Virus genome (UHGV): UHGV-0077406
Source: a virus
DNA length: 16,665 nucleotides
Strand: one strand, 5' to 3'
Within the stretch, counting starts at the first letter, position 1. The number at the start of each line of letters is the position of its first letter. Below the pieces are notes generated by a model that did no database searches, had not been told where the DNA came from, and was given only the letters and a program-made list of their open reading frames with translations. The position numbers and the translations under genes are program-made. This document shows, piece after piece, positions 322 through 16,395 of this stretch.

Positions 322-909
322 TCAGAAAGGAGGGTAATCGTTCTGGCTGTAACCATAATCATCTGCATGATTATGGCTTACGTTTTTAGAGCGATTGTCT
401 TTATCTTTGAGGCTGGCAACCATGTTGGCGATAGTTTCTGGTTGCTTGCCTTCCGCCTTTTCTTTAAGGGTTTGACCTGTTTGTGCAATAAACGGGATGC
501 GTATTTCCATCTGGTAGCTGTCTGCGCCAGTCTTTTTGTTTGTGGTTAATACTTTCTGGAGCACTAACCCGATTTTCTTTCCATGAAATTCAGGTGCAAC
601 AAATTTACTGGCGGAAACCATATGCTGCGTTAATTGTCCAATCCCAGCACACCCCATCATGGCGTGAACGACATTTGCGCCAAATTTGTTTTCCGTTCCG
701 TCATTTTTCTGAACACAGACGCTAAGATATTGGATTTTACGGCCGTCGTCGGATTCGCCAGAAAACTCAATAAATTTGGCTCCTTTTTCTGATTGCTTTA
801 GTTCTGCTTCAGTAATGGTAATGATATGGGCGCCAGTTTCGTTAATAAAACCACCTTGCCCTGCGGTCAGTGCTGCTTCTTCGTTATAAGTAAAAATCAC
901 GTTGCTCAT
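322..909 (-). CDS. Phage protein, probable SSB-like partner of the Sak4-type ATPase (DUF669-like)
   Basis: 195-aa ORF whose start overlaps the stop of the upstream ATPase gene (906/909), indicating translational coupling. Assignment rests on synteny with Sak4 (AAA_24) modules, not on a motif. Confidence 0.5.
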   Translation of the reverse strand: MSNVIFTYNEEAALTAGQGGFINETGAHIITITEAELKQSEKGAKFIEFSGESDDGRKIQYLSVCVQKNDGTENKFGANVVHAMMGCAGIGQLTQHMVSASKFVAPEFHGKKIGLVLQKVLTTNKKTGADSYQMEIRIPFIAQTGQTLKEKAEGKQPETIANMVASLKDKDNRSKNVSHNHADDYGYSQNDYPPF

Positions 910-2085: not shown

Positions 2086-2113
2086 ATATAAAAAGGCCCT
2101 CACACTGGAGGGC
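2086..2113 (-). terminator. Putative rho-independent terminator (minus strand)
   Basis: 6-bp GC-rich stem GCCCTC/GAGGGC with 6-nt loop; on the minus strand it is followed by TTTTTATAT. Confidence 0.45.
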
Positions 2114-2230
2114 AAAGAAGATTTCCAATAATCAGAACAAGTCGGCTCCTGTTTAGTTACGAGCGACATTGCTCCGTGTATTCACTCGTTGGAATGAATA
2201 CACAGTGCAGTGTTTATTCTGTTGTTTATG

Positions 2231-2258
2231 CCAAAAATAAAGGCCGACTATGCGGCCT
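2231..2258 (-). terminator. Rho-independent terminator after the SieB-like gene
   Basis: Stem AGGCCG/CGGCCT (6 bp, 6-nt loop) followed on the minus strand by TTATTTTTGG; lies 5 nt downstream of the stop of the 149-aa ORF. Confidence 0.6.
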
Positions 2259-2262
2259 GAAA

Positions 2263-2712
2263 TTACTTAACCAATGATGCTGCATATTCGATAAGGTAAA
2301 GCTTTGGGGCCAGCCAAATTTTTAACCAAGTCATATTGGTTACTACACCAATAATAAAAATCCCCCACAGAGTCAAAACTCCAACCAATGGCATGATAAG
2401 AAGATTAATATCACCTTTGCTATCCCAAACCATTGTCGGCCTGTATTTGGGATTTCCTTTCTCCCATGAATATCCTTCATCACCGATTTTACCTGTCTCA
2501 ACTCTTTGGCACTGCTTCTTCATAAACCAGAAAACCAGTGGGATTGTTAGAATGGCCATTAATGTTTTAATCAGACTGTCAACCATATTCCATAGCAGCA
2601 ACTGATGAACAACATCAGGAATCTGTGCCTGGCTAAATGAAACAGCCGCGTCTATTCCATTACTGGCTTTTTGCAGTAGTTCTACGAGAATCTTGTTTGC
2701 TTGTTCTTCCAT
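2263..2712 (-). CDS. Small inner-membrane protein with two predicted TM helices; possible superinfection-exclusion protein (SieB-like)
   Basis: 149-aa ORF with two hydrophobic segments ('LMAILTIPLVFWFM', 'LLIMPLVGVLTLWGIFIIGVV'); occupies the sieB position of the lambda pL operon between N and cIII; own terminator downstream. Function inferred from position. Confidence 0.45.
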   Translation of the reverse strand: MEEQANKILVELLQKASNGIDAAVSFSQAQIPDVVHQLLLWNMVDSLIKTLMAILTIPLVFWFMKKQCQRVETGKIGDEGYSWEKGNPKYRPTMVWDSKGDINLLIMPLVGVLTLWGIFIIGVVTNMTWLKIWLAPKLYLIEYAASLVK

Positions 2713-2851
2713 ATATCACCTTGATTGTAATAAGCATGAAATTATTTACGGACAAAAATAAAGGCCACCATCAGGCAGCCTTGTAGTTCTGTTTACCAAG
2801 TTCTCTGGCAATCATTGTCGTCGTTCGTATTGTCCACACCATTGATTTGTA

Positions 2852-2938
2852 TCAATAGTCGTAGTCATACGGATAGTCCTGGTATTGTTCCATCACATCC
2901 TGAGGATGCTCTTCGAACTCTTCAAATTCTTCTTCCAT
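2852..2938 (-). CDS. Small acidic, Tyr-rich peptide (28 aa)
   Basis: ATG at 2938 preceded by GAGGTGAT; product 'MEEEFEEFEEHPQDVMEQYQDYPYDYDY'. Below the ORF-track length cutoff; occupies the ral-equivalent position just downstream of N. Confidence 0.3.
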   Translation of the reverse strand: MEEEFEEFEEHPQDVMEQYQDYPYDYDY

Positions 2939-2996
2939 ATATCACCTCAAATAAGTGGTTTGCTGCCTAATTTCATTTTCTGGCGACCAACACAAG

Positions 2997-3380
2997 TCAC
3001 CTCGCCGTCAGTTGTTTTGATTTCCGGTAGCCTGCCGCGTAAATGGCTACGTTTGGAAGACATACACCAGTTTCTGGTTGCCTATGCCCAAACTCATTCG
3101 CGTACACAATGGCCGCTCTCTCCAGATTGCGTCTGTATTCTTTCTGTTGCCAGATCACGTCCTGTGCCATGAACTTAATTGGCTTAGCGTCTTCTATGCG
3201 CTCAGGCGTTTCGTGTTTACCTTTAGCCTGAATCTGTGCCAGACTGAGGGTAGGGCGGTGTAATACTTCTGAACTTATTGCTTCTTCGCGGGCCAGCACG
3301 CCGTTAGCTAATGCCTTTGCCTTTAAACGCTCACGACGACGAGAACGTGAATTGCCTTTGAACTGAGTTCTGCGTGTCAT
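2997..3380 (-). CDS. N: N-family transcription antiterminator (non-lambda specificity)
   Basis: First gene downstream of pL/nutL; AGGAGG RBS; N-terminal arginine-rich motif 'TRRTQFKGNSRSRRRERLKAKA'; 127 aa. Sequence differs from lambda N, so this gene lies outside the lambda-derived immunity segment. Confidence 0.7.
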   Translation of the reverse strand: MTRRTQFKGNSRSRRRERLKAKALANGVLAREEAISSEVLHRPTLSLAQIQAKGKHETPERIEDAKPIKFMAQDVIWQQKEYRRNLERAAIVYANEFGHRQPETGVCLPNVAIYAAGYRKSKQLTAR

Positions 3381-3545
3381 ATAGACCTCCTGATGAACTT
3401 TGGTGGTGTGGTAGGTGGGAGACCCATTTCGACCTGTTTCGGCCTACTTCAATTCGGCAATAGTCCCGCAGGCCTCGCCGCTTTACGTGCGACATATTCC
3501 CGTCCATGAACCCTTCACCACACCCCAAAGTTCACTTTGGTTATT

Positions 3546-3560
3546 GCGCTTTGTCAGCGC
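3546..3560 (-). promoter_or_regulatory. nutL boxB hairpin (P22-type GCGCUGACAAAGCGC)
   Basis: Minus-strand transcript reads GCGCTGACAAAGCGC, a 5-bp stem with GACAA loop, in the pL leader upstream of N; the same loop type recurs at nutR. Confidence 0.55.
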
Positions 3561-3628
3561 CGTAGATTCATATTCGAATCGTTGTATATTCACCGCCCTG
3601 GTGAGTAGTGCGTCCTGCTGATGTGTTT

Positions 3629-3691
3629 AGTATCACCGCCAGTGGTATTTATGTCAACACCGCTAGAGATAATTAATCACCGCAGATGGTT
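3629..3691 (-). promoter_or_regulatory. pL promoter with operators OL1 (3631-3647), OL2 (3655-3671), OL3 (3675-3691)
   Basis: Lambda operator sequences read directly: TATCACCGCCAGTGGTA, CAACACCGCTAGAGATA, AATCACCGCAGATGGTT. On the minus strand, -35 TTGACA (3652-3657) and -10 GATACT (3629-3634) are spaced as in lambda pL. Confidence 0.85.
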
Positions 3692-3833
3692 ATCTGTATG
3701 TTTTTTATATGAATTTATTTTTTGCAGGGGGCATTGTTTGGTAGGTGAGAGATCTGAATTGCTATGTTTAGTGAGTTGTATCTATTAATTTTCAAATAAA
3801 TACAATTGGTTATGTGTTTTTTTTGGGGGGGTA

Positions 3834-3862
3834 GGCAAAGAAAACCCGGCTCGGTGGCCGGG
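3834..3862 (-). terminator. Rho-independent terminator ending the cI-distal cassette
   Basis: Stem CCCGGC/GCCGGG (6 bp, 6-nt loop) followed on the minus strand by TTTTCTTTG, starting 8 nt after the stop of the 310-aa gene. Confidence 0.6.
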
Positions 3863-3869
3863 TGAGATA

Positions 3870-4802
3870 TTAAAGAACCGATTTAACAAGATGGTTTTTA
3901 CGGTACAGACCTATGCGATCATTGTGAATCTCAGTAGTCTCCACTAAAAGAGAAACAATCTGTCCGACCTTGTGTTTTTTTTGTATTAAATCTAGCATTT
4001 CAATCGGATAGGAAGCCTTTAAATGTTCACCACCAACATCAAGCTCCAGCTTCCCATATTTGGATAGAACGACCAGTTCGCCTGTAACCGTTTCAGTAAT
4101 GGGAGGGGATGAAATGGTTGATGTAAGTCTACTCACCAAGTACTTAATTTTATTGGAGTCAATAGTTGCCACCTTGGTGCCATTACTAAATGGACCGGTC
4201 CAACTTGCATCAAATGTTAAGTTGTGTTTATCGCATTCCTCTACGATTCTCTTAAGGCTTACAGTGGAATTGTATCCAATTTCAGCGACGTGATTCATGA
4301 AGTTGTTGTCGTCATCGCTTAACAACAAATCGAATATGCCTTTTACAGCCTTGCTGGGTACTGTTTCTACTAATTCTGCTATTCCTGTAGAGAAGGTGAC
4401 GCCCAATTTTGTAGACCCAGGGGATAAATCAGCCAGCCTGAGGTTTAAGGAGCTTTTCACGTCGTAGGGAACTTTTTTTGAGTCCTTGCCTGAGGCAATT
4501 TTGTGTGTTGCTCTTTGTATTAGCGCTGCAAGATTTGTTGAAATAGCCCCAAGCAGCTCTAAAGGAATAGAGCCAAAGTCAACCTCAGAGCCTTTCAGCC
4601 GCAGCTCAAAAAAATCGATAAGTGGGTGCCGACTATCTTGCTTTAATTTTTCGGCCTTCAAATCGCTCAGATGAGAATCCATGGAGCGATAAAGAAGCAT
4701 GTCAGCAAAGGACCTGGTTTTGTTTTGCTTCATTGCATCGACTTCTTTTTGAATGAAATCAATGCGTTTATCGCAATTTTTAAACATTGATTTATCATTC
4801 AT
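3870..4802 (-). CDS. Hypothetical 310-aa protein; second gene of the two-gene cassette in the rexAB-equivalent slot (candidate effector or sensor)
   Basis: Long AT-rich ORF; start at 4802 overlaps the stop of the upstream gene as ATGA; no TM segments and no catalytic motif I can recognise; unrelated to RexA or RexB as I recall them. Confidence 0.6.
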   Translation of the reverse strand: MNDKSMFKNCDKRIDFIQKEVDAMKQNKTRSFADMLLYRSMDSHLSDLKAEKLKQDSRHPLIDFFELRLKGSEVDFGSIPLELLGAISTNLAALIQRATHKIASGKDSKKVPYDVKSSLNLRLADLSPGSTKLGVTFSTGIAELVETVPSKAVKGIFDLLLSDDDNNFMNHVAEIGYNSTVSLKRIVEECDKHNLTFDASWTGPFSNGTKVATIDSNKIKYLVSRLTSTISSPPITETVTGELVVLSKYGKLELDVGGEHLKASYPIEMLDLIQKKHKVGQIVSLLVETTEIHNDRIGLYRKNHLVKSVL

Positions 4803-5278
4803 AAAAAAATCCTCACTAACCCTTTCGGGTTTTCACTGCGATCAAAACCAAACCAACCGCGCCAGTAGCTACGCCAGTACTCATAATCATAGTTAGGGTC
4901 ATCTAAATTCTTCATGAGTAGTAGGACATCAATTTTGTAGTTTTGTTTGATGTAGTTTCGGTCAAGCAAATTATCGACGCGGCCCCGAAGCATGACAGGT
5001 ATTGAGTTTATATTGCTATAGTCACATACCAACAAAATATCAATATCATCAGGCTCTGGTTTAGACGTGGTGTATGAACCATCAACCCATATTTCTGTAA
5101 AACAGCCATATTGAGCAGATAATTCTCGAATAGATTCGAGTAGCTGTATAAAATTACAGTATAGCATGCCTCGCCTGGATGATGAAGGAAAGCAATCGAC
5201 ACAATACGATTTTAATCCAGCTTCATCCATGTCATGGAACCCTGGCTCAAACAGGGGTGGGTAATTAATTTTATCCAT
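4799..5278 (-). CDS. Minimal pol-beta-superfamily nucleotidyltransferase (MNT/SMODS-like), 159 aa; first gene of the cassette
   Basis: Signature 'VDGSYTTSKPEPDDIDILLV' matches the hG[GS]-x9-Dh[DE]h NTase motif, with a possible third acidic residue in 'LLLMKNLDD'; Cys-rich N-terminus; co-oriented with cI and 149 nt downstream of its stop. Confidence 0.6.
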   Translation of the reverse strand: MDKINYPPLFEPGFHDMDEAGLKSYCVDCFPSSSRRGMLYCNFIQLLESIRELSAQYGCFTEIWVDGSYTTSKPEPDDIDILLVCDYSNINSIPVMLRGRVDNLLDRNYIKQNYKIDVLLLMKNLDDPNYDYEYWRSYWRGWFGFDRSENPKGLVRIFL

Positions 5279-5427
5279 AAAAAACCTTGCTATACATTTG
5301 TTTTTTTTATTAAAAATCTAACCACCGAAATGGTGACGGCAAGATGTTACATGGGGTTACAATCAGCCAATACACCGCATTAAATAATTTTTTCACCAGC
5401 TATGCGCCGACCAGAACACCTTGCCCA

Positions 5428-6144
<717 letters not shown>

Positions 6145-6151
6145 TTAAATC

Positions 6152-6217
6152 TATCACCGCAAGGGATAAACTTCTAACACCGTGCGTGTTGACTATTTTA
6201 CCTCTAGCGGTGATAAT
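6152..6217 (+). promoter_or_regulatory. OR3 (6152-6168), OR2 (6175-6191), OR1 (6199-6215) with pR (-35 TTGACT 6189-6194, -10 GATAAT 6212-6217) and divergent pRM
   Basis: Lambda operator sequences read directly: TATCACCGCAAGGGATA, TAACACCGTGCGTGTTG, TACCTCTAGCGGTGATA (one mismatch to lambda OR1); promoter hexamers at lambda-like spacing. Confidence 0.9.
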
Positions 6218-6241: not shown

Positions 6242-6442
6242 ATGGAACAACGCATAACCCTGAAAGATTATGCAATACGCTTTGGGCAAACCAAGACGGC
6301 TAAAGATCTCGGCGTATATCAAAGCGCGATTAACAAGGCCATTCATGCAGGCCGAAAGATTTTTTTAACTATAAACGCTGATGGAAGCGTTTATGCGGAA
6401 GAAATAAAGCCCTTCCCAAGTAACAAAAAAACAACTGCATAA
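6242..6442 (+). CDS. cro: Cro repressor
   Basis: 66-aa product '[66 protein letters not shown]' is near-identical to lambda Cro; AAGGAGG RBS. Confidence 0.95.
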
Positions 6443-6579: not shown

Positions 6580-6876
6580 ATGACACAAGCAAGTTACAGC
6601 AAGCCAACACAGCGAGAAATTGATCGCGCAGAAACAGATTTACTCATCAACCTGTCAACGCTTACCCAGCGCGGTCTGGCAAAGATGATTGGCTGTCATG
6701 AATCGAAGATAAGCAGAACGGACTGGAGATTTATTGCTTCGGTCTTGTGTGCTTTTGGAATGGCATCAGACATCAGTCCGATTAGCAGGGCTTTTAAGTA
6801 TGCGCTTGATGAAATCACAAAGAAAAAATCCCCGGCTGCCACCGAGGATTTTAAGCAAATTGATATGCAATTCTGA
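6580..6876 (+). CDS. cII: CII-family transcriptional activator (divergent from lambda CII)
   Basis: Position after cro/nutR; C-terminus '[18 protein letters not shown]' parallels lambda CII 'KKRPAATERSEQIQMEF'. TTGC-N6-TTGC (CII site of a leftward pRE) lies on the opposite strand at 6589-6602, overlapping the start of the gene as in lambda. Confidence 0.7.
6819..6847 (-). terminator. Putative oop-like antisense terminator overlapping the 3' end of cII
   Basis: On the minus strand: stem CCTCGG/CCGGGG (6 bp with one G-U pair), 6-nt loop, then ATTTTTTCTTT; same location and orientation as the lambda oop RNA terminator. Confidence 0.45.
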
Positions 6877-6908: not shown

Positions 6909-7055
6909 ATGACAAAACAACTCAGTCCTTACCAGGACAAAATTCACAAACACATACTACGTGATCGCTTCCTGTCCAGCTTCAAGCAGCCTGGTCGATT
7001 CCGGGCTGAGTTGGAAAAAGTGAAGCTGATGCAGAAGGAGAAAGGTCATGAGTAA
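6909..7055 (+). CDS. Small hypothetical protein (48 aa) between cII and O
   Basis: ATG at 6909 with AGGAGT RBS; product '[48 protein letters not shown]'; 3' end overlaps the O start codon. Below the ORF-track cutoff. Confidence 0.35.
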
Positions 7056-7908
7056 TCTTGCAACCGTAACACATTTAAGGCCTTCACAACGGCCTGTGGA
7101 GCGTCGTGTGGCAGAAGTTGAAGATGGTTATACCCGTCTTGCAAATGCCCTGTATGAAGAGCTTATCGGCGCAGATTTAACAAAAAATCAGAGTAAGGTT
7201 GCCCACGCCATATGCCGTAAAACATACGGATACGGTAAAAAGATGGATCGCATCTCTGATAGTCAGTTAGCTCAAATTACCAGGCTGCCAAGACAGAAGG
7301 TAAACAAGGCCAAGAATGAGCTTATCGCGATGAAGGTAATCCTTCGCGAAGGCCAGCAAATCGGGCCTAACAAGAACATCGAGGAATGGCAAATCGAAGG
7401 GTGTCACTACTCTGGTGATAATGTCACTGCATTGGTGACAAAAAGTGTCACCAAAACGGTGACAGCGCTGTCACCAAAACAGGGACACACAAAAGAAACT
7501 ATTACAAAAGAAAAAAGAAATAATAAAAACACTATGTCCGAAAGTGTTCGGACGGAGTGTGAAAAATCATCTGACCGTCACGAAGAAACCGACAAGGCAT
7601 TCGAGGAAATATTCTGGTGTGCAGGCATGCGGAAAGCCGGGAAGAAAAACGCAGCTTCGGCATTCAGAACACAGTTCAGGGAATGGCGTAAAACTACCAG
7701 GGGTACGGCAAGCGAGTTTGCCACGATGCTGGCAGAAGACATCGCATGCAGGAATGGTAAGCAGTTCGGATTCGACAGGTTGTTACCATCGAGCTACCTG
7801 AACGGTCAACGCTGGAACGACGAAAAGCCAGAAACCATTCAACCACAATCCAAACCATCATCCGCAATCACCGTATCGAAAACTGGCTACGTGTTTTTCG
7901 ACAGGTGA
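7048..7908 (+). CDS. O: Replication initiator O (lambda O-like N-terminal domain)
   Basis: N-terminal region ('[14 protein letters not shown]...[40 protein letters not shown]...GPNKNIEEW') parallels lambda O; GAAGGAG RBS; origin iterons lie inside the gene. Confidence 0.85.
7401..7530. repeat. Replication origin: four iteron-like TGTCAC(C)...GGTGACA repeats followed by an AT-rich tract
   Basis: Repeats around 7401-7420, 7421-7439, 7445-7465 and 7466-7489, each with internal dyad symmetry, then an A-rich stretch 7490-7530; same architecture and intragenic placement as lambda ori. Confidence 0.6.
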
Positions 7909-8015
7909 ACCATGAAATCAAAAATCAAATCGCTACTGGTCGCTGGTTATAACCACGGCTGGTTAAGTATTTCGTTTGTCGATTTCTGGTTTAAAAATCT
8001 CAATCTGAGGGAATC

Positions 8016-10922
8016 ATGACGCCAAGTGAACTTAGCGACCTGCTTTGGGCGCAGGTTGACAGGGTGGCTCCGCACCTGTTGCCAAACGGCAAGAAAGAGG
8101 GGCATGAGTGGGTTGCCGGTAACATCAACGGTGACAAGGGAAACAGCCTTAAGGTCAACCTTAGCGGCAAGAAAAAATGGGCTGATTTCGCCGAGGGAGA
8201 CGGCGGTGACATGCTTGATTTGTGGATGGCATGTCGTGGAATTAACCTGCATCAGGCTATGCAGGAAGCGAAAGCATTTCTCGGTATCAAGGATGACGAT
8301 CACCATTTCGATGCCAGACGTGAGAAAAAATTCTCCAGACCTGATCGCAAGAAAATCGCCCGCTACGTTACCAGAACAGAATCCCATCTTGAGTACCTGC
8401 AATCGCGTGGCATATCGCCAGAAATCGTAAAGCGCTACGAGGTTGTCAGCGGCAAGGTGTGGAATGGAGAGCGGGAACTGGATGCTCTGGTGATTCCGTA
8501 CAAACGCGATGGTGAGTTGTTGCAGGTCAAGCGAATCAGCACTGAGCGCCCGGACGGGAAGAAAGTCATTATGGCAGAAGGTGATTGCGAACCTTGCCTG
8601 TTCGGATGGCAGGCTCTGGACGCTGGCGTGAGGGCGGTTGTGCTTTGCGAAGGCGAAATTGATTGTATGAGCTATGCGCAATACGGCATCTCGGCGTTAT
8701 CCGTGCCGTTTGGTGGCGGGAAAGGCGCTAAGCAACAGTGGATTGAGTTTGAGTATCACAACCTCGACAGGTTTGAGGAAATATTCATCTCGATGGACGT
8801 TGATGATGTTGGTCGTGAAGCCGCAAGGGAAATCGCAAGCCGACTCGGTGAACATCGTTGCCGTCTTGTTACTCTGCCGTACAAAGACATCAACGAATGC
8901 CTGATGAACGGTGTTACCGAGGATGAAATCTGGCAGTACATCGGCACGGCATCCTACTTCGATCCTGAAGAACTCTACAGCGCGCGAGAGTTTTACCAGG
9001 ACACTATCAACGCTTTCTACGGCAAGCAGCAGTATCTGTTTAATCCACCGTGGGAATCTCTGGCAGATAAATTCCAGTTCCGTGAGGCAGAGTTGACGCT
9101 GGTCAATGGTGTGAACGGTCACGGAAAAGCCTGTCCACTTGATGAACCAATTCTGCTCGCTAATGGTGAATGGACTACTCACGGGGATGTAAAAATTGGC
9201 GATCAGGTGGCATCAGTAGACGGCAATCCGTCAACTGTCACCGGGATATTCCCGCAGGGTGTTAGAGATGTTTACCGAGTCACATTTGAAGATGGTCGTT
9301 ATGTTGATTGCGCAGGCGATCACCTATGGGAGGTCACTAGTCGTGGATTCACGAAAGGCGAGAAGCGCCGCGTGATAGACACCTTCGAGCTGAAACGGTT
9401 GAGTGAAACGAAGAGGCACAAAAATGGCGTCAGGATACCCGAAATAACTGGTGACTTTGGCGACCACTCAGAGCCATTAGCATGGGTTATCGGCTCCCTT
9501 CTCGGGGATGGTAGTCTTAGCAATGGGAGCGTGAAGTTTTCAAACGTCGAGCCATACATGATCGAGCGTATGAAGGCTGAACTGCCTGATTACAACTTTT
9601 CTGGAGATGGTAAGGACTGGCTGATATCAACGGCGCGTGGTCAGGTAAATCCACTCATGGAGACCCTGCGAGTTTATGGACTAATGGGGTGCACAGCAAA
9701 AAACAAATTCATCCCTCGTGTGTTTTTTTCCGCAAACAAATCAACGCGTATAGGAATGCTGTGTGGTCTGCTTGAAACGGATGGTTATGTCGAGAAGGAT
9801 GGAACGCTTGTTTTTTCCTCAGCAAGTGAAGAACTGCGTAATGGGGTTGTTCAACTGGTTAACTCACTCGGCGGTTCATGCCGGACGCGAGTTAAAACTG
9901 GCGTGACATACACATACAAGGGCGATAAGCGGCATGGGATGGATTCATATGAGGCAAGGATACGACTGACAAGGGAAATCAGGGAGGCCATCCGTTCACC
10001 ACGACTCAATGGCAGATTAACTGCGCATCGATTCGAGGGGTGTGGGGTATTCGTCAGGAATGTTGAAAAAATCGGCAATGCAGAATGCTTGTGTATCATG
10101 GTCGATCACCCTCGCCACCTGTATGTAACCAGAGGATATGTGGCAACGCATAACACCGAGGTTGTCGGGCATATGGCGCTTGAGGCAATGCGTCAGGGTG
10201 TGAAGACGTGCATCGCGTCACTTGAGCTGAAGCCTGGTATTCTCCTTAAGCGCCTTACCCGTCAGGCGACGTGCTGCAAGATGCCGCCAGTGCTGGAAAT
10301 TGACTCTGCATTTAAATTTTATGACGAAAGACTTTGGGTGTTTGGCCTGACCGGAACGGCGAAAGCCGACAGGCTGATCGAAATATTCGACTACGCTCGC
10401 CGCCGATACGGGATCCAGTTATTCATCATCGACAGCCTGATGAAATGTGGCATAGGCGACGATGACTATAACGGGCAGAAGGCGTTTGTTGACTCGATTT
10501 GCGACTTCAAAAACAAAACAAACTCCCACGTCATTCTCGTTACTCACTCGCGAAAAGGAGACAGCGAAGAAAAACCAACCGGGAAAATGGACGTAAAAGG
10601 CTCTGGAGCGATAACAGACCTGACAGACAACCTTTTCATCATCTGGCGTAACAAGGCTCGCGAGAGAGCGTTACAGAGAGTTCAGAGTGGTGAAAAGATG
10701 TCAGAGAAGGACGAACAGCTACTGGCATCTCCGGCATCTGTTTTGATGCTTGAAAAACAACGTAACGGCGAAGGTTGGGAAGGTGGTGTCCCGTTGTTCC
10801 TTGACGAGCAATCGCACCAGTTCCTGCAACTTGAATCAGGATCGCCATATAGCTACATCGCCAATATGCCGAAATCGGAATATGACGAGGCGTGGCGACA
10901 GGAAAACGTGACGGAGTATTAA
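8016..10922 (+). CDS. Bifunctional DNA primase / replicative helicase (Toprim primase plus RecA-fold helicase) interrupted by an in-frame intein
   Basis: Toprim motifs ('VVLCEGEIDCMS', 'SMDVDDVGREAA'); helicase Walker A 'LVNGVNGHGK' and Walker B-like 'QLFIIDSL'; 968 aa. A 341-aa intein sits in the P-loop. Occupies the position of lambda P. Confidence 0.85.
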   Translation: MTPSELSDLLWAQVDRVAPHLLPNGKKEGHEWVAGNINGDKGNSLKVNLSGKKKWADFAEGDGGDMLDLWMACRGINLHQAMQEAKAFLGIKDDDHHFDARREKKFSRPDRKKIARYVTRTESHLEYLQSRGISPEIVKRYEVVSGKVWNGERELDALVIPYKRDGELLQVKRISTERPDGKKVIMAEGDCEPCLFGWQALDAGVRAVVLCEGEIDCMSYAQYGISALSVPFGGGKGAKQQWIEFEYHNLDRFEEIFISMDVDDVGREAAREIASRLGEHRCRLVTLPYKDINECLMNGVTEDEIWQYIGTASYFDPEELYSAREFYQDTINAFYGKQQYLFNPPWESLADKFQFREAELTLVNGVNGHGKACPLDEPILLANGEWTTHGDVKIGDQVASVDGNPSTVTGIFPQGVRDVYRVTFEDGRYVDCAGDHLWEVTSRGFTKGEKRRVIDTFELKRLSETKRHKNGVRIPEITGDFGDHSEPLAWVIGSLLGDGSLSNGSVKFSNVEPYMIERMKAELPDYNFSGDGKDWLISTARGQVNPLMETLRVYGLMGCTAKNKFIPRVFFSANKSTRIGMLCGLLETDGYVEKDGTLVFSSASEELRNGVVQLVNSLGGSCRTRVKTGVTYTYKGDKRHGMDSYEARIRLTREIREAIRSPRLNGRLTAHRFEGCGVFVRNVEKIGNAECLCIMVDHPRHLYVTRGYVATHNTEVVGHMALEAMRQGVKTCIASLELKPGILLKRLTRQATCCKMPPVLEIDSAFKFYDERLWVFGLTGTAKADRLIEIFDYARRRYGIQLFIIDSLMKCGIGDDDYNGQKAFVDSICDFKNKTNSHVILVTHSRKGDSEEKPTGKMDVKGSGAITDLTDNLFIIWRNKARERALQRVQSGEKMSEKDEQLLASPASVLMLEKQRNGEGWEGGVPLFLDEQSHQFLQLESGSPYSYIANMPKSEYDEAWRQENVTEY
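9132..10154 (+). mobile_element. Intein with double-motif LAGLIDADG homing endonuclease, inserted in the helicase Walker A loop
   Basis: Begins with Cys ('CPLDEPILLANG'), ends 'VATHN' followed by Thr (+1 nucleophile); two LAGLIDADG blocks ('LAWVIGSLLGDGSL', 'IGMLCGLLETDGYV'); 1023 nt in frame. The N-terminal boundary could be one codon earlier (Ala at 9129), which would restore a canonical GHGKT. Confidence 0.75.
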
Positions 10923-11004
10923 ATGACAATCTACATCACTGAGCTAATAGCAGGGTTATCGTTACTAATGGTTCTTACTGTATATATTATTAAGTATATT
11001 CTTT

Positions 11005-11616
11005 ATGCGAATAAAAAAACCAATTGATCACGATGAGCTTCTGTCAACATTATCATATGACTCAGAAACAGGAATATTTAAATGGCTAAAAACAAATTCA
11101 GTAGTAAGAGTAAAAGGTAGTATTGCTGGAGGTGTTAGTGGTGGTTATATATGCATTAGCATAAATAATGTTTTGTATTATGCGCATAGGCTTGCTTGGT
11201 TCTATGTATACAAAAAATGGCCTCCTAAGTTTATTGATCATGTAAATGGGAACAGACTTGACAATAGGATTTCAAATCTAAGACTGGCAACAGAGGAGCA
11301 GAATGCAAGAAACATTGTAGGTAATAGGTTAAACACATCCGGTGCGATTGGAGTGTCTTGGGATAAGACAACTGGCAGGTGGAAGTCTTATGTTGGTTAT
11401 AAAAATAAGACAATATCGTTAGGGTATTTCGATAGCAAAGAAGATGCAGCATTCATAGCAGCACTAGCAAGAAAGAAACTATATGGAACTTATGCGAGTA
11501 AAGCACTTAATTGCGAGCATGAGCTTTTATCTCAATTTAATAATGATGAGGATAAACTTGCGGAATATCTTAAGGAAAAATCTAAAAGGACTCGAAAGCG
11601 TGTTAAAAAAAGATAA
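11005..11616 (+). CDS. HNH homing endonuclease with C-terminal AP2-type DNA-binding domain
   Basis: HNH core 'YYAHRLAWF...IDHVNGNRLDNRISNLRLATEEQNARN' and AP2-like 'GVSWDKTTGRWKSYVGYKNKTISLGYFDSKEDAAFI'; markedly AT-rich relative to flanks; no obvious SD sequence. Confidence 0.8.
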   Translation: MRIKKPIDHDELLSTLSYDSETGIFKWLKTNSVVRVKGSIAGGVSGGYICISINNVLYYAHRLAWFYVYKKWPPKFIDHVNGNRLDNRISNLRLATEEQNARNIVGNRLNTSGAIGVSWDKTTGRWKSYVGYKNKTISLGYFDSKEDAAFIAALARKKLYGTYASKALNCEHELLSQFNNDEDKLAEYLKEKSKRTRKRVKKR

Positions 11617-11648
11617 AGGCCTGCTGGTAATCGCAGGCCTTTTTATTT
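11617..11648 (+). terminator. Rho-independent terminator after the HNH endonuclease gene
   Basis: Stem AGGCCTGC/GCAGGCCT (8 bp, 8-nt loop) followed by TTTTATTT immediately after the stop codon. Confidence 0.7.
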
Positions 11649-15018: not shown

Positions 15019-15667
15019 TGGCAGCAAATACCGAAATATTTGGGTAGTTGGCGATCTGCACGGATGCTACACGAACCTGATGAAAAAACTGGAGACGATA
15101 GGATTCGACACCAAAAAAGACCTGCTTATCTCGGTTGGCGATTTGGTCGATCGCGGTACAGAGAACGTCGAATGCCTGGAATTAATCACATTCCCCTGGT
15201 TCAGAGCTGTACGTGGAAACCATGAGCAAATGATGATTGATGGCTTATCAGAGCGCGGAAACGTCAATCACTGGATGCTTAATGGCGGTGGCTGGTTCTT
15301 TAATCTCGATTACGACAAAGAAATTCTGGCTAAAGCTCTTGCCCATAAAGCAGATGAACTTCCGTTAATCATCGAACTGGTGAGCAAAGATAAAAAATAT
15401 GTCATCTGCCACGCCGATTATCCTTGTGACGAATACGAGTTTGGAAAGCCAGTTGATCATCAGCAGGTAATCTGGAACCGAGAACGAATCAGCAACTCAC
15501 AAGACGGGATCGTGAAAGAAATTAAAGGCGCGGACACGTTCATCTTTGGTCATACGCCAGCAGTGAAACCGCTCAAATTTGCCAACCAGATGTATATCGA
15601 TACCGGCGCAGTGTTCTGCGGAAAGCTCACATTGATTCAGGTACAGGGAGAAGGCGCGTGGGCATAA
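14996..15667 (+). CDS. Ser/Thr protein phosphatase (lambda PPase / NinI)
   Basis: Internal ATG at 14996 with GGAGTGA RBS; metallophosphatase motifs 'GDLHG', 'GDLVDRG', 'GNHE'; near-identical to the lambda phosphatase over the stretch I can recall. Confidence 0.85.
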
Positions 15668-16176
15668 GAGAACTAAACCTCACCAAAGAACAGCATGAGT
15701 GGCTGAATGGCTGGCTTGAACTGTGGGGCGCATGGGTTTATTCAGGTCGTCTGGAAAAGCGCATGAGCAGCGTAATAGCGAAGTTCATGGAGAGCGTAGA
15801 GCCGGGAAGAGTTATGACAAGGCCAATGTGTAATGATGATGATGGAATGTTGATTTCTCAGGTCGTCGATTCCGTCATGTACATTGACAAGAAAGCCTTT
15901 GGCATCCTCCTCAGCTACTACGCTCATGGTTCATCTAAGCGAGCAATTGCATCCTACTATCACGCGACTGCAAAGCCACGCAAGATGTGTGGACGTGGTG
16001 GCGAGGGATGGAGAAAACCTTCAATGGCAACCTGTAGAAACGAAATTGACGACATCCTGAAAGCGTCGTTATTTGTTTTGTACCAGCCAATGCAAAATGC
16101 TTTCAAAATGCGTAAACGTGTTGAGAAAGTTAAGCATGTTGCTGTTAAAAGCCTTGACATGCAATTATCTATTTAG
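15658..16176 (+). CDS. Q: Late-gene antiterminator Q (non-lambda Q family)
   Basis: GTG start with GGAGAAGG RBS; motifs '[12 protein letters not shown]' and '[17 protein letters not shown]' match the WGAW...C.DDD pattern of Q proteins of the phage 21/82/933W type; last gene before the late region. Confidence 0.65.
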
Positions 16177-16239: not shown

Positions 16240-16314
16240 GGGTCAGTCGTATAAAGGTCATTACGGAAGGCTGTTAACCTTCTTATCGTGGTTCGAGTCC
16301 ACGCTGTCCCGCCA
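16240..16314 (+). tRNA. tRNA with anticodon GUU (Asn-type), divergent phage-type
   Basis: Hand-folded cloverleaf: acceptor GGGTCAG/CTGTCCC (one mismatch), anticodon stem GAAGG/CCTTC with loop CTGTTAA, T-arm CGTGG-TTCGAGT-CCACG, 3' GCCA. D-stem has one mismatch. Confidence 0.5.
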
Positions 16315-16319
16315 AACAT

Positions 16320-16395
16320 GCTGGTTTAGCTCCAATGGTAGAGCAGTCGCCTTGTAAGCGAATGGGTAGCGGTTCAAGTCCGTTAACCAGCACCA
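16320..16395 (+). tRNA. tRNA with anticodon UGU (Thr-type)
   Basis: Hand-folded cloverleaf: perfect 7-bp acceptor GCTGGTT/AACCAGC, D-arm GCTC-CAATGGTA-GAGC, anticodon loop CTTGTAA, T-arm AGCGG-TTCAAGT-CCGTT, discriminator A plus CCA. Confidence 0.6.

Follow-up and report, generated by a model that had tools for sequence, protein, structure and literature searches.

A lambdoid replication module of the ES18 type with a predicted class 3 intein in its primase-helicase gene

Results

Genes and features of the replication module

We analyzed a stretch of 16,665 nucleotides (nt) from the UHGV virus genome UHGV-0077406 (the whole stretch is hereafter called the window), which open reading frame (ORF) calls and family-model scans identify as the early region of a lambdoid phage or prophage. 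Its replication module lies on the plus strand and is composed of the gene for an O-type initiator with a predicted origin inside it, a 35-codon gene, and a 968-codon ORF in which a predicted Toprim primase-helicase is interrupted by a long in-frame insertion:

7048-7908, plus strand: O-type initiator, 286 amino acids (aa); Pfam Phage_rep_O, TIGR01610
7912-8019, plus strand: gene for a gp60-like 35-aa protein, MKSKIKSLLVAGYNHGWLSISFVDFWFKNLNLRES; phrog_21848 (E = 4e-26), corresponding to ES18 gp60
8016-10922, plus strand: primase-helicase precursor, 968 aa, about 109 kDa
8016-9128, plus strand: N-extein, aa 1-371, ending in the first half of the Walker A motif, GVNGHGK
8091-8291: DnaG-type zinc-ribbon-like region, aa 26-92, without Cys4
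8640-8903: Toprim domain, aa 209-296 (Toprim_2, E = 7.8e-12)
9129-10154, plus strand: predicted class 3 intein, 342 aa, about 38 kDa, residues 372-713 of the 968-aa ORF
9129-9131, 9321-9323, 9327-9329 and 10092-10094: intein residues Ala1, His65, Trp67 and Cys322
10146-10154: intein residues Thr340-His341-Asn342
about 9414-10028: LAGLIDADG homing endonuclease domain
9498-9512 and 9768-9785: LAGLIDADG motifs LLGDG (intein aa 124) and LLETDG (intein aa 214)
10155-10922, plus strand: C-extein, aa 714-968; its Thr+1 completes Walker A (GK/T), and the remaining superfamily 4 (SF4) helicase motifs, among them Walker B, H3 and H4, follow

We consider it highly probable that this locus belongs to the ES18 type of lambdoid replication modules and that its helicase gene harbors a mobile class 3 intein. 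An initial annotation of this DNA had described the long ORF as a Toprim primase fused to a helicase; both domains are indeed present, but they are not contiguous, as aa 372-713 form an intein placed in the P-loop.

A class 3 intein splits the Walker A motif

Alignment to gp55 of mEp043 (99% identity) and gp61 of ES18 (94%), each 626 aa long, revealed a clean, in-frame insertion of 342 residues between K371 and T714, that is, between the lysine and the threonine of the Walker A motif GVNGHGK/T (P-loop GHGK/T). At the DNA level, homology to SEN22 and other intein-less phages ends at position 2081 of our query, which corresponds to nt 9128 of the window, and the insertion site in intein-less DNA reads AATGGTGTGAACGGTCACGGAAAA/ACGGAGGTTGTCGGGCATATGGCA, with the slash marking the insertion point. 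The inserted segment starts with ACPLDEP and ends with VATHN, and the next residue is Thr.

Inteins of class 3 are recognized by a non-nucleophilic residue 1, Trp at B:12, Cys at F:4, Thr at G:5 and His at B:10, as well as by a C-terminal Asn, Ser or Thr at +1 and, usually, insertion at a helicase P-loop (PMC2807308, PMC3196547). The window intein carries all class 3 signatures, in the form of Ala1, His65, Trp67, Cys322, Thr340, Asn342 and Thr+1. In the PDB it matched best, by sequence, two DnaB inteins of class 3, from M. chimaera (6RIX, 6RIY) and from M. smegmatis (6BS8), and the H, W, C and THN residues are aligned in these matches; it also matched PI-SceI and PI-PkoII. Pfam LAGLIDADG_3 was found at E = 2e-7 (31.6 bits, cutoff 22.5) and Hom_end_hint at 6e-5, below the Pfam cutoff; PHROG matches to "terminase" families fall on the same stretch. 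The insertion is, judging by these signatures, a class 3 intein with a LAGLIDADG endonuclease domain, for which both splicing and endonuclease cleavage are predicted. Its first residue was set at Ala1 because intein-less alleles read GHGK/TEVV. A boundary at Cys2, implying class 1 chemistry, was rejected, since the spliced product would then carry GKAT and not GKT.

As the intein splits Walker A, hydrolysis of nucleoside triphosphates and helicase activity should require protein splicing, and a similar dependence has been argued for P-loop inteins (PMC6195587). In the DnaBi1 intein of M. smegmatis, H2O2 reversibly shuts splicing off via a disulfide on the catalytic Cys (PMC6195587). The redox partner of that residue, Cys48, is replaced by Val in the window intein, which instead has a C320-L-C322 motif that includes Cys322. 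By analogy, splicing might act as a gate through which oxidative conditions delay replication and toxin-gene amplification, the latter because close relatives of this allele sit in Shiga toxin 2 (Stx2) phages.

The spliced product resembles T7 gp4 and Twinkle

The predicted spliced product should be a protein of 626 aa (about 71 kDa), a T7 gp4/Twinkle-like enzyme combining a Toprim primase with an SF4 helicase. An intein-less homologue matched T7 gp4 (5IKN, 6N7I; E = 3e-23) over the Toprim and helicase domains up to residue 507, and Twinkle (E = 6e-14) over the same two domains. The Toprim acids E212, D261, D263 and D291 align with E157, D207, D209 and D237 of T7 gp4, and are invariant across the family down to 61% identity. 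In spliced order, Walker A aligns with GMGKS of T7; in the window protein this motif is present only once aa 372-713 are removed, and the AAA_25 match of the large ORF is weak (1.7e-4, below the Pfam cutoff). Primase and helicase activities are predicted for the spliced protein.

No T7-type Cys4 zinc-binding domain was found in the first 110 residues, which contain a single Cys. Zn_ribbon_DnaG scored an E-value of 0.079, below its cutoff, and TIGR01391 (dnaG) matched aa 26-143 at 9e-10, pointing to a homologous region without the zinc ligands.

The last residues of the primase-helicase (10878-10919), SEYDEAWRQENVTEY, form an acidic tail closed by an aromatic residue. T7 gp4 and single-stranded DNA-binding protein (SSB) have similar C-terminal tails, with which they dock polymerases or partner proteins, and the tail seen here might likewise contact host replisome proteins.

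A lambda-like origin inside an initiator with a non-lambda C-terminal domain

The initiator gene contains the following domains and candidate origin elements:

O aa 1-157, approximately: N-terminal origin-binding domain
7519-7905: C-terminal domain of O, aa 158-286
7402-7420, 7422-7440, 7446-7464 and 7469-7487: four 19-nt dyad-symmetric iterons, TGTCAC-N6-GGTGACA
7489-7530: AT-rich tract (GC content 20-30%), which doubles as coding sequence for the interdomain linker of O
7529-7560: inverted repeat to the right of the AT-rich tract, with 14-nt arms (86% complementary) and a 4-nt loop

The lambda-type initiator and the intragenic origin of iterons and AT-rich DNA had both been proposed in the initial annotation, and both were confirmed. 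O matches PF04492 (Phage_rep_O) with an E-value of 1e-37 (128.8 bits, cutoff 28.7) and TIGR01610 (phage_O_Nterm) with 1.6e-30, and its aa 1-157 are 49% identical to aa 1-155 of lambda O (BLASTP, E = 2e-42); a sequence search of O against the PDB gave no meaningful match. When up to two mismatches were allowed, the iteron pattern had 9 strand matches in the window compared to 0.32 expected, and none of 200 shuffles (0/200) reached this number; eight of the nine represent the four sites read on both strands. The iterons resemble those of lambda in their number, their spacing, the central CAAAAC and their location within the O gene. Their arms are different (TGTCAC/GTGACA as compared to TCCCTC/GAGGGA in lambda), and the binding specificity should therefore differ as well. 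The segment 7489-7520 is almost identical to the AT-rich segment of the lambda ori, and the AT-rich tract is predicted to be the unwinding region of the origin. The inverted repeat that flanks it occupies the position of the palindrome in the lambda ori.

Past aa 157 no similarity to the C-terminus of lambda O was detected by BLASTP, and HHalign returned a probability of 0.1%. In lambda, the C-terminal domain of O binds P. Homologues of P, DnaC or DnaB were not found among the window ORFs scanned (Phage_lambda_P, DnaC and DnaB models; PHROG), in agreement with the earlier proposal that a phage-borne primase-helicase takes the place of P. A C-domain unlike that of lambda, together with the lack of such genes among the ORFs scanned, makes it reasonable to infer that the helicase is brought in independently of P.

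The C-domain recurs, at 51-99% identity, behind unrelated N-domains, which include two Phage_rep_O subtypes (that of the window and mEp043, and that of ES18), HTH_36 (F451 and phi24B) and the Fraca type (phrog_1701). Behind each of these combinations lies the 35-aa gene, followed by the primase-helicase. This association supports, but does not prove, recruitment of the primase-helicase by the C-domain. Homology to phages whose O has another N-domain sets in within the AT-rich/linker segment (query positions 428 and 477); this segment is also conserved with lambda, and thus forms a natural recombination joint.

We also considered the end of the initiator (...GYVFFDR before the stop codon; ...GTIIIDR in Morganella) as a docking motif. 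This candidate was dropped because the underlying DNA, GACAGGTGA, is the Shine-Dalgarno sequence of the 35-aa gene, so that the conservation of the initiator tail is at least partly that of a translation signal.

The 35-codon ORF is a conserved gene coupled to its neighbors

The 35-aa ORF at 7912-8019, with an ATGA overlap onto the helicase start, had been suggested to act as a coupling or leader peptide. The ORF and its overlap are present as described: its Shine-Dalgarno sequence, AGGTGA, overlaps the stop codon of O, and its own stop overlaps the ATG of the primase-helicase (ATGA, 8016-8019). Through these sequence overlaps O, the 35-aa gene and the 968-codon gene are translationally coupled.

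For a wider comparison we took 13 loci with primase-helicases sharing 61-100% identity with the spliced product. These come from E. coli phages, Salmonella phage ES18, the Shiga toxin (Stx) phage F451, phages Fraca and LMessi, and prophages of five genera (Shimwellia, Pseudocitrobacter, Pseudescherichia, Morganella and Enterobacter). The diversity in this set came from a genome scan, which gave seven loci; a scan of viral contigs returned only intein-less copies 99-100% identical. In all 13 loci the ORF ahead of the primase-helicase is exactly 35 codons long and overlaps the primase-helicase start by 1 or 4 nt, and the motif MKxx[IL]KxLL[VIM]xGYN[HR]G...F..[LFI][ND][LM]R is kept throughout. 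Distant pairs have a saturated proportion of synonymous differences (pS, 0.8-0.9) compared to a proportion of nonsynonymous differences (pN) of 0.28-0.30, with dN/dS of 0.2-0.5 where computable. By this substitution pattern the ORF is a real protein-coding gene under purifying selection, and also a coupling device. The coupling role suggested for it therefore holds, but with its amino acids conserved it is more than a leader peptide. It goes unannotated in many records. Across the 13 loci the 35-aa protein always accompanies the helicase, following initiators with five different N-domains (two of them Phage_rep_O subtypes) and two unrelated C-termini.

The intein is sporadic and maintained

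Among 44 phage records matching the query region, the intein was present in only 9, indicating a sporadic distribution. The region was also matched in 298 complete E. coli genomes, 79 of which cover at least 80% of the query, a level that intein-less alleles do not reach. An intact 968-aa allele is found in the records of phi24B, where it is annotated as "P", and of Stx2a_F451. Between the window and Stx2a_F451 alleles, the intein has accumulated 31 synonymous (Sd) and 8 nonsynonymous (Nd) differences; its dN/dS is 0.07 as a whole and 0.06 in the endonuclease part, suggesting that both functions are being maintained. Its pS in this comparison (0.127) is well above those of the flanking exteins (0.046 for 8016-9128 and 0.012 for 10155-10919), which suggests that the intein and its host gene have partly separate histories.

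The module is 98-99% identical at the DNA level to mEp043 and Sf101, both without the intein, and, from query position 477 onward, 97-98% identical to intein-bearing Stx phages. It is a mosaic, mEp043-like from O to about position 8160 and F451-like downstream of the intein. Such a structure is normal for lambdoid phages, and the module looks like an ordinary mosaic recombinant. Neither in the phage collection nor among complete E. coli genomes did we find an mEp043-type O and an intein-bearing allele joined in a single piece.

The codon of Thr+1 (10155-10157) is ACC in both intein-plus alleles that were compared (window and F451) and ACG in about 80 close intein-less alleles, with ACC or ACA in some divergent intein-less alleles; ACC may be a mark of co-conversion, or of the donor, beside the homing site. 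Of 13 informative sites downstream of the intein, the window shares 12 with the F451 allele and none with the mEp043 allele; upstream, agreement is mixed. We considered whether this pattern reflects a tract of co-conversion around the intein and discarded the idea, as ordinary mosaic recombination accounts for the pattern equally well.

Degenerate copies were found in prophages of E. coli ECMA0423 and Shigella flexneri SFBU1023 (locus 3001-4860), where the ORF is truncated in the endonuclease domain, after intein residue ~240, and where the DNA upstream of the 35-codon gene showed no initiator ORF. The truncated Shigella flexneri copy fits the ShP-Sfv Primase entry, described as a "partial intein stopping before Block F" (PMC2807308).

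The Min27 record (EU311208, locus 2109-5903) annotates split or shortened genes for both the initiator and the primase-helicase (O of 222 aa; "P" of 860 aa plus ORF31). Intact ORFs of 258 and 968 aa are present in the F451 and phi24B records, which are nearly identical to it, and the differences in EU311208 are probably frameshift errors or mutations. An "EP-Min27 Primase" intein is presumably listed in InBase. Searches of the literature for the intein described here in Stx phages gave no result, and the word "intein" is absent from both Eru classification papers (one of them PMC8951638).

The surrounding early region

The other main features of the window are those of a lambdoid early region:

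322-909, minus strand: phage SSB
5428-6141, minus strand: CI repressor
6189-6217, plus strand: pR-like sigma-70 promoter, TTGACT-17-GATAAT (consensus match only, 10 of 12 positions)
6242-6442, plus strand: Cro

Genes on the minus strand encode Abc2 (anti-RecBCD), the phage SSB, a Sak4-like annealase, Kil, an N-like antiterminator and CI. The order on the plus strand is Cro, CII, a DUF2740 protein, O, the 35-codon ORF, the 968-codon Toprim/helicase ORF and an HNH endonuclease, followed by NinB, a Dam-type methylase, NinG, a NinI-type phosphatase, Q and two tRNA genes. The pR-like promoter sits between CI and Cro, upstream of cro-cII-O, and probably drives the replication operon. No DNA polymerase was found among the window ORFs scanned.

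Right behind the primase-helicase stop codon starts a 34-codon ORF (10923-11027, plus strand; TAAATG), for which hand translation gives the hydrophobic peptide MTIYITELIAGLSLLMVLTVYIIKYILYANKKTN, with only a weak PHROG match (phrog_5907, E = 4e-4). Just after the primase-helicase stop lies a free-standing endonuclease gene with HNH and AP2 domains (11005-11616, plus strand; flanks 10923-11642). Homology to HK022, PA28 and many Stx phages starts exactly at 10923, and in these phages the same HNH cassette follows P, DnaB-like or Ren genes; a bidirectional terminator-like hairpin (11615-11642) closes the cassette. Two selfish nuclease elements of different kinds, the intein and the HNH cassette, thus flank or invade the replication gene.

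On the minus strand, at 6825-6852 within the 3' end of cII, a hairpin with a T-run resembles a terminator and lies where lambda has the terminator of its oop antisense RNA. The Rfam element Lambda_thermo (cIII thermoregulator RNA element) matches the minus strand at 1981-2039 (88.5 bits), overlapping the 5' end of the Kil-like ORF (1780-2019). Genes for tRNA-Asn (GTT, 16240-16314) and tRNA-Thr (TGT, 16320-16395) lie on the plus strand, just 3' of the Q gene (15658-16176). Stx phages have tRNA genes at the same position, ahead of their toxin genes; the window ends soon after the tRNA genes, and the region beyond is not visible.

Discussion

The initial annotation saw in this locus a hybrid mechanism of initiation, and suggested comparing module architecture across lambdoid phages. 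In that comparison the arrangement is not a new hybrid: it is the known ES18 type, which also occurs in Stx phages. The ES18 GenBank record of 2005 already lists gp59 (O-like, with an internal origin), gp60 (unknown) and gp61 ("putative primase/helicase; similar to phage T7 gene 4"). These three genes share their order and overlaps with the window and have the ori inside the initiator gene; identities are 96% for the O C-domain, 97% for gp60 and 94% for gp61. The module is also shared by epsilon34 (gp50-52), g341c, Sf101, mEp043 and SEN22; over the ES18-type relatives as a whole, identities range over 95-99% for the O C-domain, 71-100% for the 35-aa protein and 94-99% for the primase-helicase exteins. 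The replication region was noted in the epsilon34 genome paper (PMC2629481), and an O relative with "a nonhomologous primase-helicase" like that of ES18 was described in 2023 as a third type of lambdoid replication module (PMC10307801). ES18, mEp043 and Sf101 lack the intein, unlike the window. The Stx phages phi24B, Min27 and Stx2a_F451 have it in the same module, but their initiator has an N-domain of the HTH_36 type and their ori presumably differs. Stx phages with an HTH_36 protein and a primase have been classed as Eru5 (PMC8951638), a description that, we infer, the Stx version of the module fits. The earlier observations are thus confirmed and their interpretation is partly supported: the arrangement is an ordinary one of low novelty, in which the intein had been overlooked.

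The module combines elements familiar from several systems. It resembles lambda in its O N-domain and ori, and differs in the unrelated C-domain and in having no P gene. As in T7 gp4 and Twinkle, one polypeptide carries a Toprim RNA-polymerase domain and an SF4 (DnaB/RecA-type) helicase with catalytic acids and motifs kept; unlike in T7 gp4, the Cys4 domain is absent, the P-loop is interrupted by the intein, the origin is a lambda-type iteron origin with a separate initiator, and no cognate phage polymerase is found in the window. P22 gp18 and gp12 likewise form a lambdoid module with a phage-supplied helicase and no P-type loader (PMC10307801). However, P22 gp12 is a DnaB homologue without a primase domain, to which primase-helicases of the present kind are described as non-homologous (PMC10307801), and there is no 35-aa gene between gp18 and gp12.

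The intein has its relatives in the DnaB intein of mycobacteriophage Bethlehem, the DnaBi1 inteins of M. smegmatis and M. chimaera, and the Shigella prophage "Primase" inteins, described among class 3 inteins in 2010 (PMC2807308). Shared features are the non-nucleophilic residue 1, the WCT triplet, His B:10, the C-terminal Asn, Thr+1 and the location in a helicase P-loop. The mycobacterial class 3 inteins are mini-inteins hosted by DnaB, whereas the window intein is hosted by a gp4-like primase-helicase and retains a full LAGLIDADG endonuclease domain.

Based on these likenesses we propose the following course of replication. Upon loss of the repressor, transcription from pR would lead to expression of O, the 35-aa protein and the precursor. 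Dimers of O would bind the iterons and destabilize the AT-rich tract, as in lambda. The precursor would splice itself by the class 3 route, in which the block F residue Cys322 attacks the bond between Lys371 and Ala372, the N-extein is handed on to Thr+1 and Asn342 cyclizes; this would restore the GKT P-loop and yield the 71-kDa primase-helicase along with a free 38-kDa endonuclease. The non-lambda C-domain of O would then bring the mature hexamer to the O-bound origin, possibly with the 35-aa protein as an adaptor, so that neither P nor host DnaB-DnaC would be needed at this step. The hexamer would unwind and prime. With no polymerase gene in the window, which does encode a phage SSB, elongation would rely on a polymerase of the host, most likely Pol III. 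The endonuclease set free by splicing could cleave alleles without the intein in phages residing in the same cell, and the intein could spread in this way by homing.

Several observations weigh against parts of this scenario. Splicing, helicase, primase, endonuclease cleavage and the contact between O and the helicase are all deduced from sequence. An AlphaFold2 model of the O C-domain, built on a shallow alignment of 13 rows, reached a predicted local distance difference test (pLDDT) score of 52, with only a three-helix segment near 70, and Foldseek searches of this model against the PDB gave nothing with E below 3.7 and no fold match. In a Morganella prophage the initiator that precedes the 35-aa gene and the primase-helicase has an unrelated C-terminus, and in Vibrio phages a distantly similar C-domain (40-44% identity over about 80 aa) is followed by a weak P-like protein, without the primase-helicase. 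In T7 gp4 the Cys4 zinc domain is required for template-directed priming; since its four zinc ligands are missing here, priming may differ from that of T7 or be lost. This last point would fit a protein that acts as a helicase only, with a primase half as vestigial as in metazoan Twinkle and with host DnaG still priming the lagging strand. The zinc-ribbon-like region, with its one Cys in 110 residues and subthreshold Zn_ribbon_DnaG score, agrees with such a reading. Metazoan Twinkle, however, has lost the Toprim acidic residues, all four of which are kept here and invariant down to 61% identity, and the N-terminal 110 residues are strongly conserved across the family, so that we regard a helicase-only protein as unlikely.

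It is somewhat less improbable that the 35-codon ORF acts only in cis, delivering ribosomes to the primase-helicase start, with a functionless peptide as by-product. The stop/start overlaps in 13/13 loci and a Shine-Dalgarno sequence over the initiator stop (GACAGGTGA) that is identical even in Morganella would be expected of such a device; but the length is fixed at 35 codons and the stretch LL[VIM]xGYN[HR]G...F..[LFI][ND][LM]R persists despite pS of 0.8-0.9, and amino acids constrained in this manner argue against a pure coupling device. We find it very unlikely that the intein-bearing gene is a dead allele that does not splice, in a phage that replicates otherwise or not at all. Truncation of the gene inside the intein in one E. 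coli and one Shigella flexneri chromosome would suit this idea, as would the partial Shigella prophage Primase inteins remarked on in PMC2807308, whereas the window ORF is intact over 968 codons, has every catalytic residue, shows an intein dN/dS of 0.07 and shares its architecture with the phi24B and Stx2a_F451 records. The literal reading of the initial annotation, a contiguous 968-aa primase-helicase in a novel hybrid of lambda initiation, has the single uninterrupted ORF in its favor and is hardly credible otherwise: alignment to mEp043 gp55 and ES18 gp61 refutes it, as residues 372-713 are absent from these 99% and 94% identical homologues and split GK/T, the same residues match Hint and LAGLIDADG models and class 3 intein structures, and the module has been on record in ES18 since 2005.

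An ES18-type module with an intein in its helicase gene thus remains our preferred interpretation. A more far-reaching and quite doubtful extension of it would make the 35-aa protein a dedicated micro-adaptor or loader of the helicase, and class 3 splicing a post-translational gate on phage replication. It is possible that, as such a micro-adaptor, the 35-aa protein lets the gp4-like primase-helicase assemble at whichever initiator precedes it.

For annotation, our results imply that in phi24B-type Stx phages and their relatives the protein of 968 aa recorded as "toprim domain-containing protein" or as "P" represents a T7-gp4-like primase-helicase of 626 aa plus a class 3 intein of 342 aa, and that the unannotated 35-codon gene upstream of the primase-helicase should be called. 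Biologically, the locus holds nothing unexpected, as it brings together a recognized alternative replication module of lambdoid phages and a known kind of selfish element.

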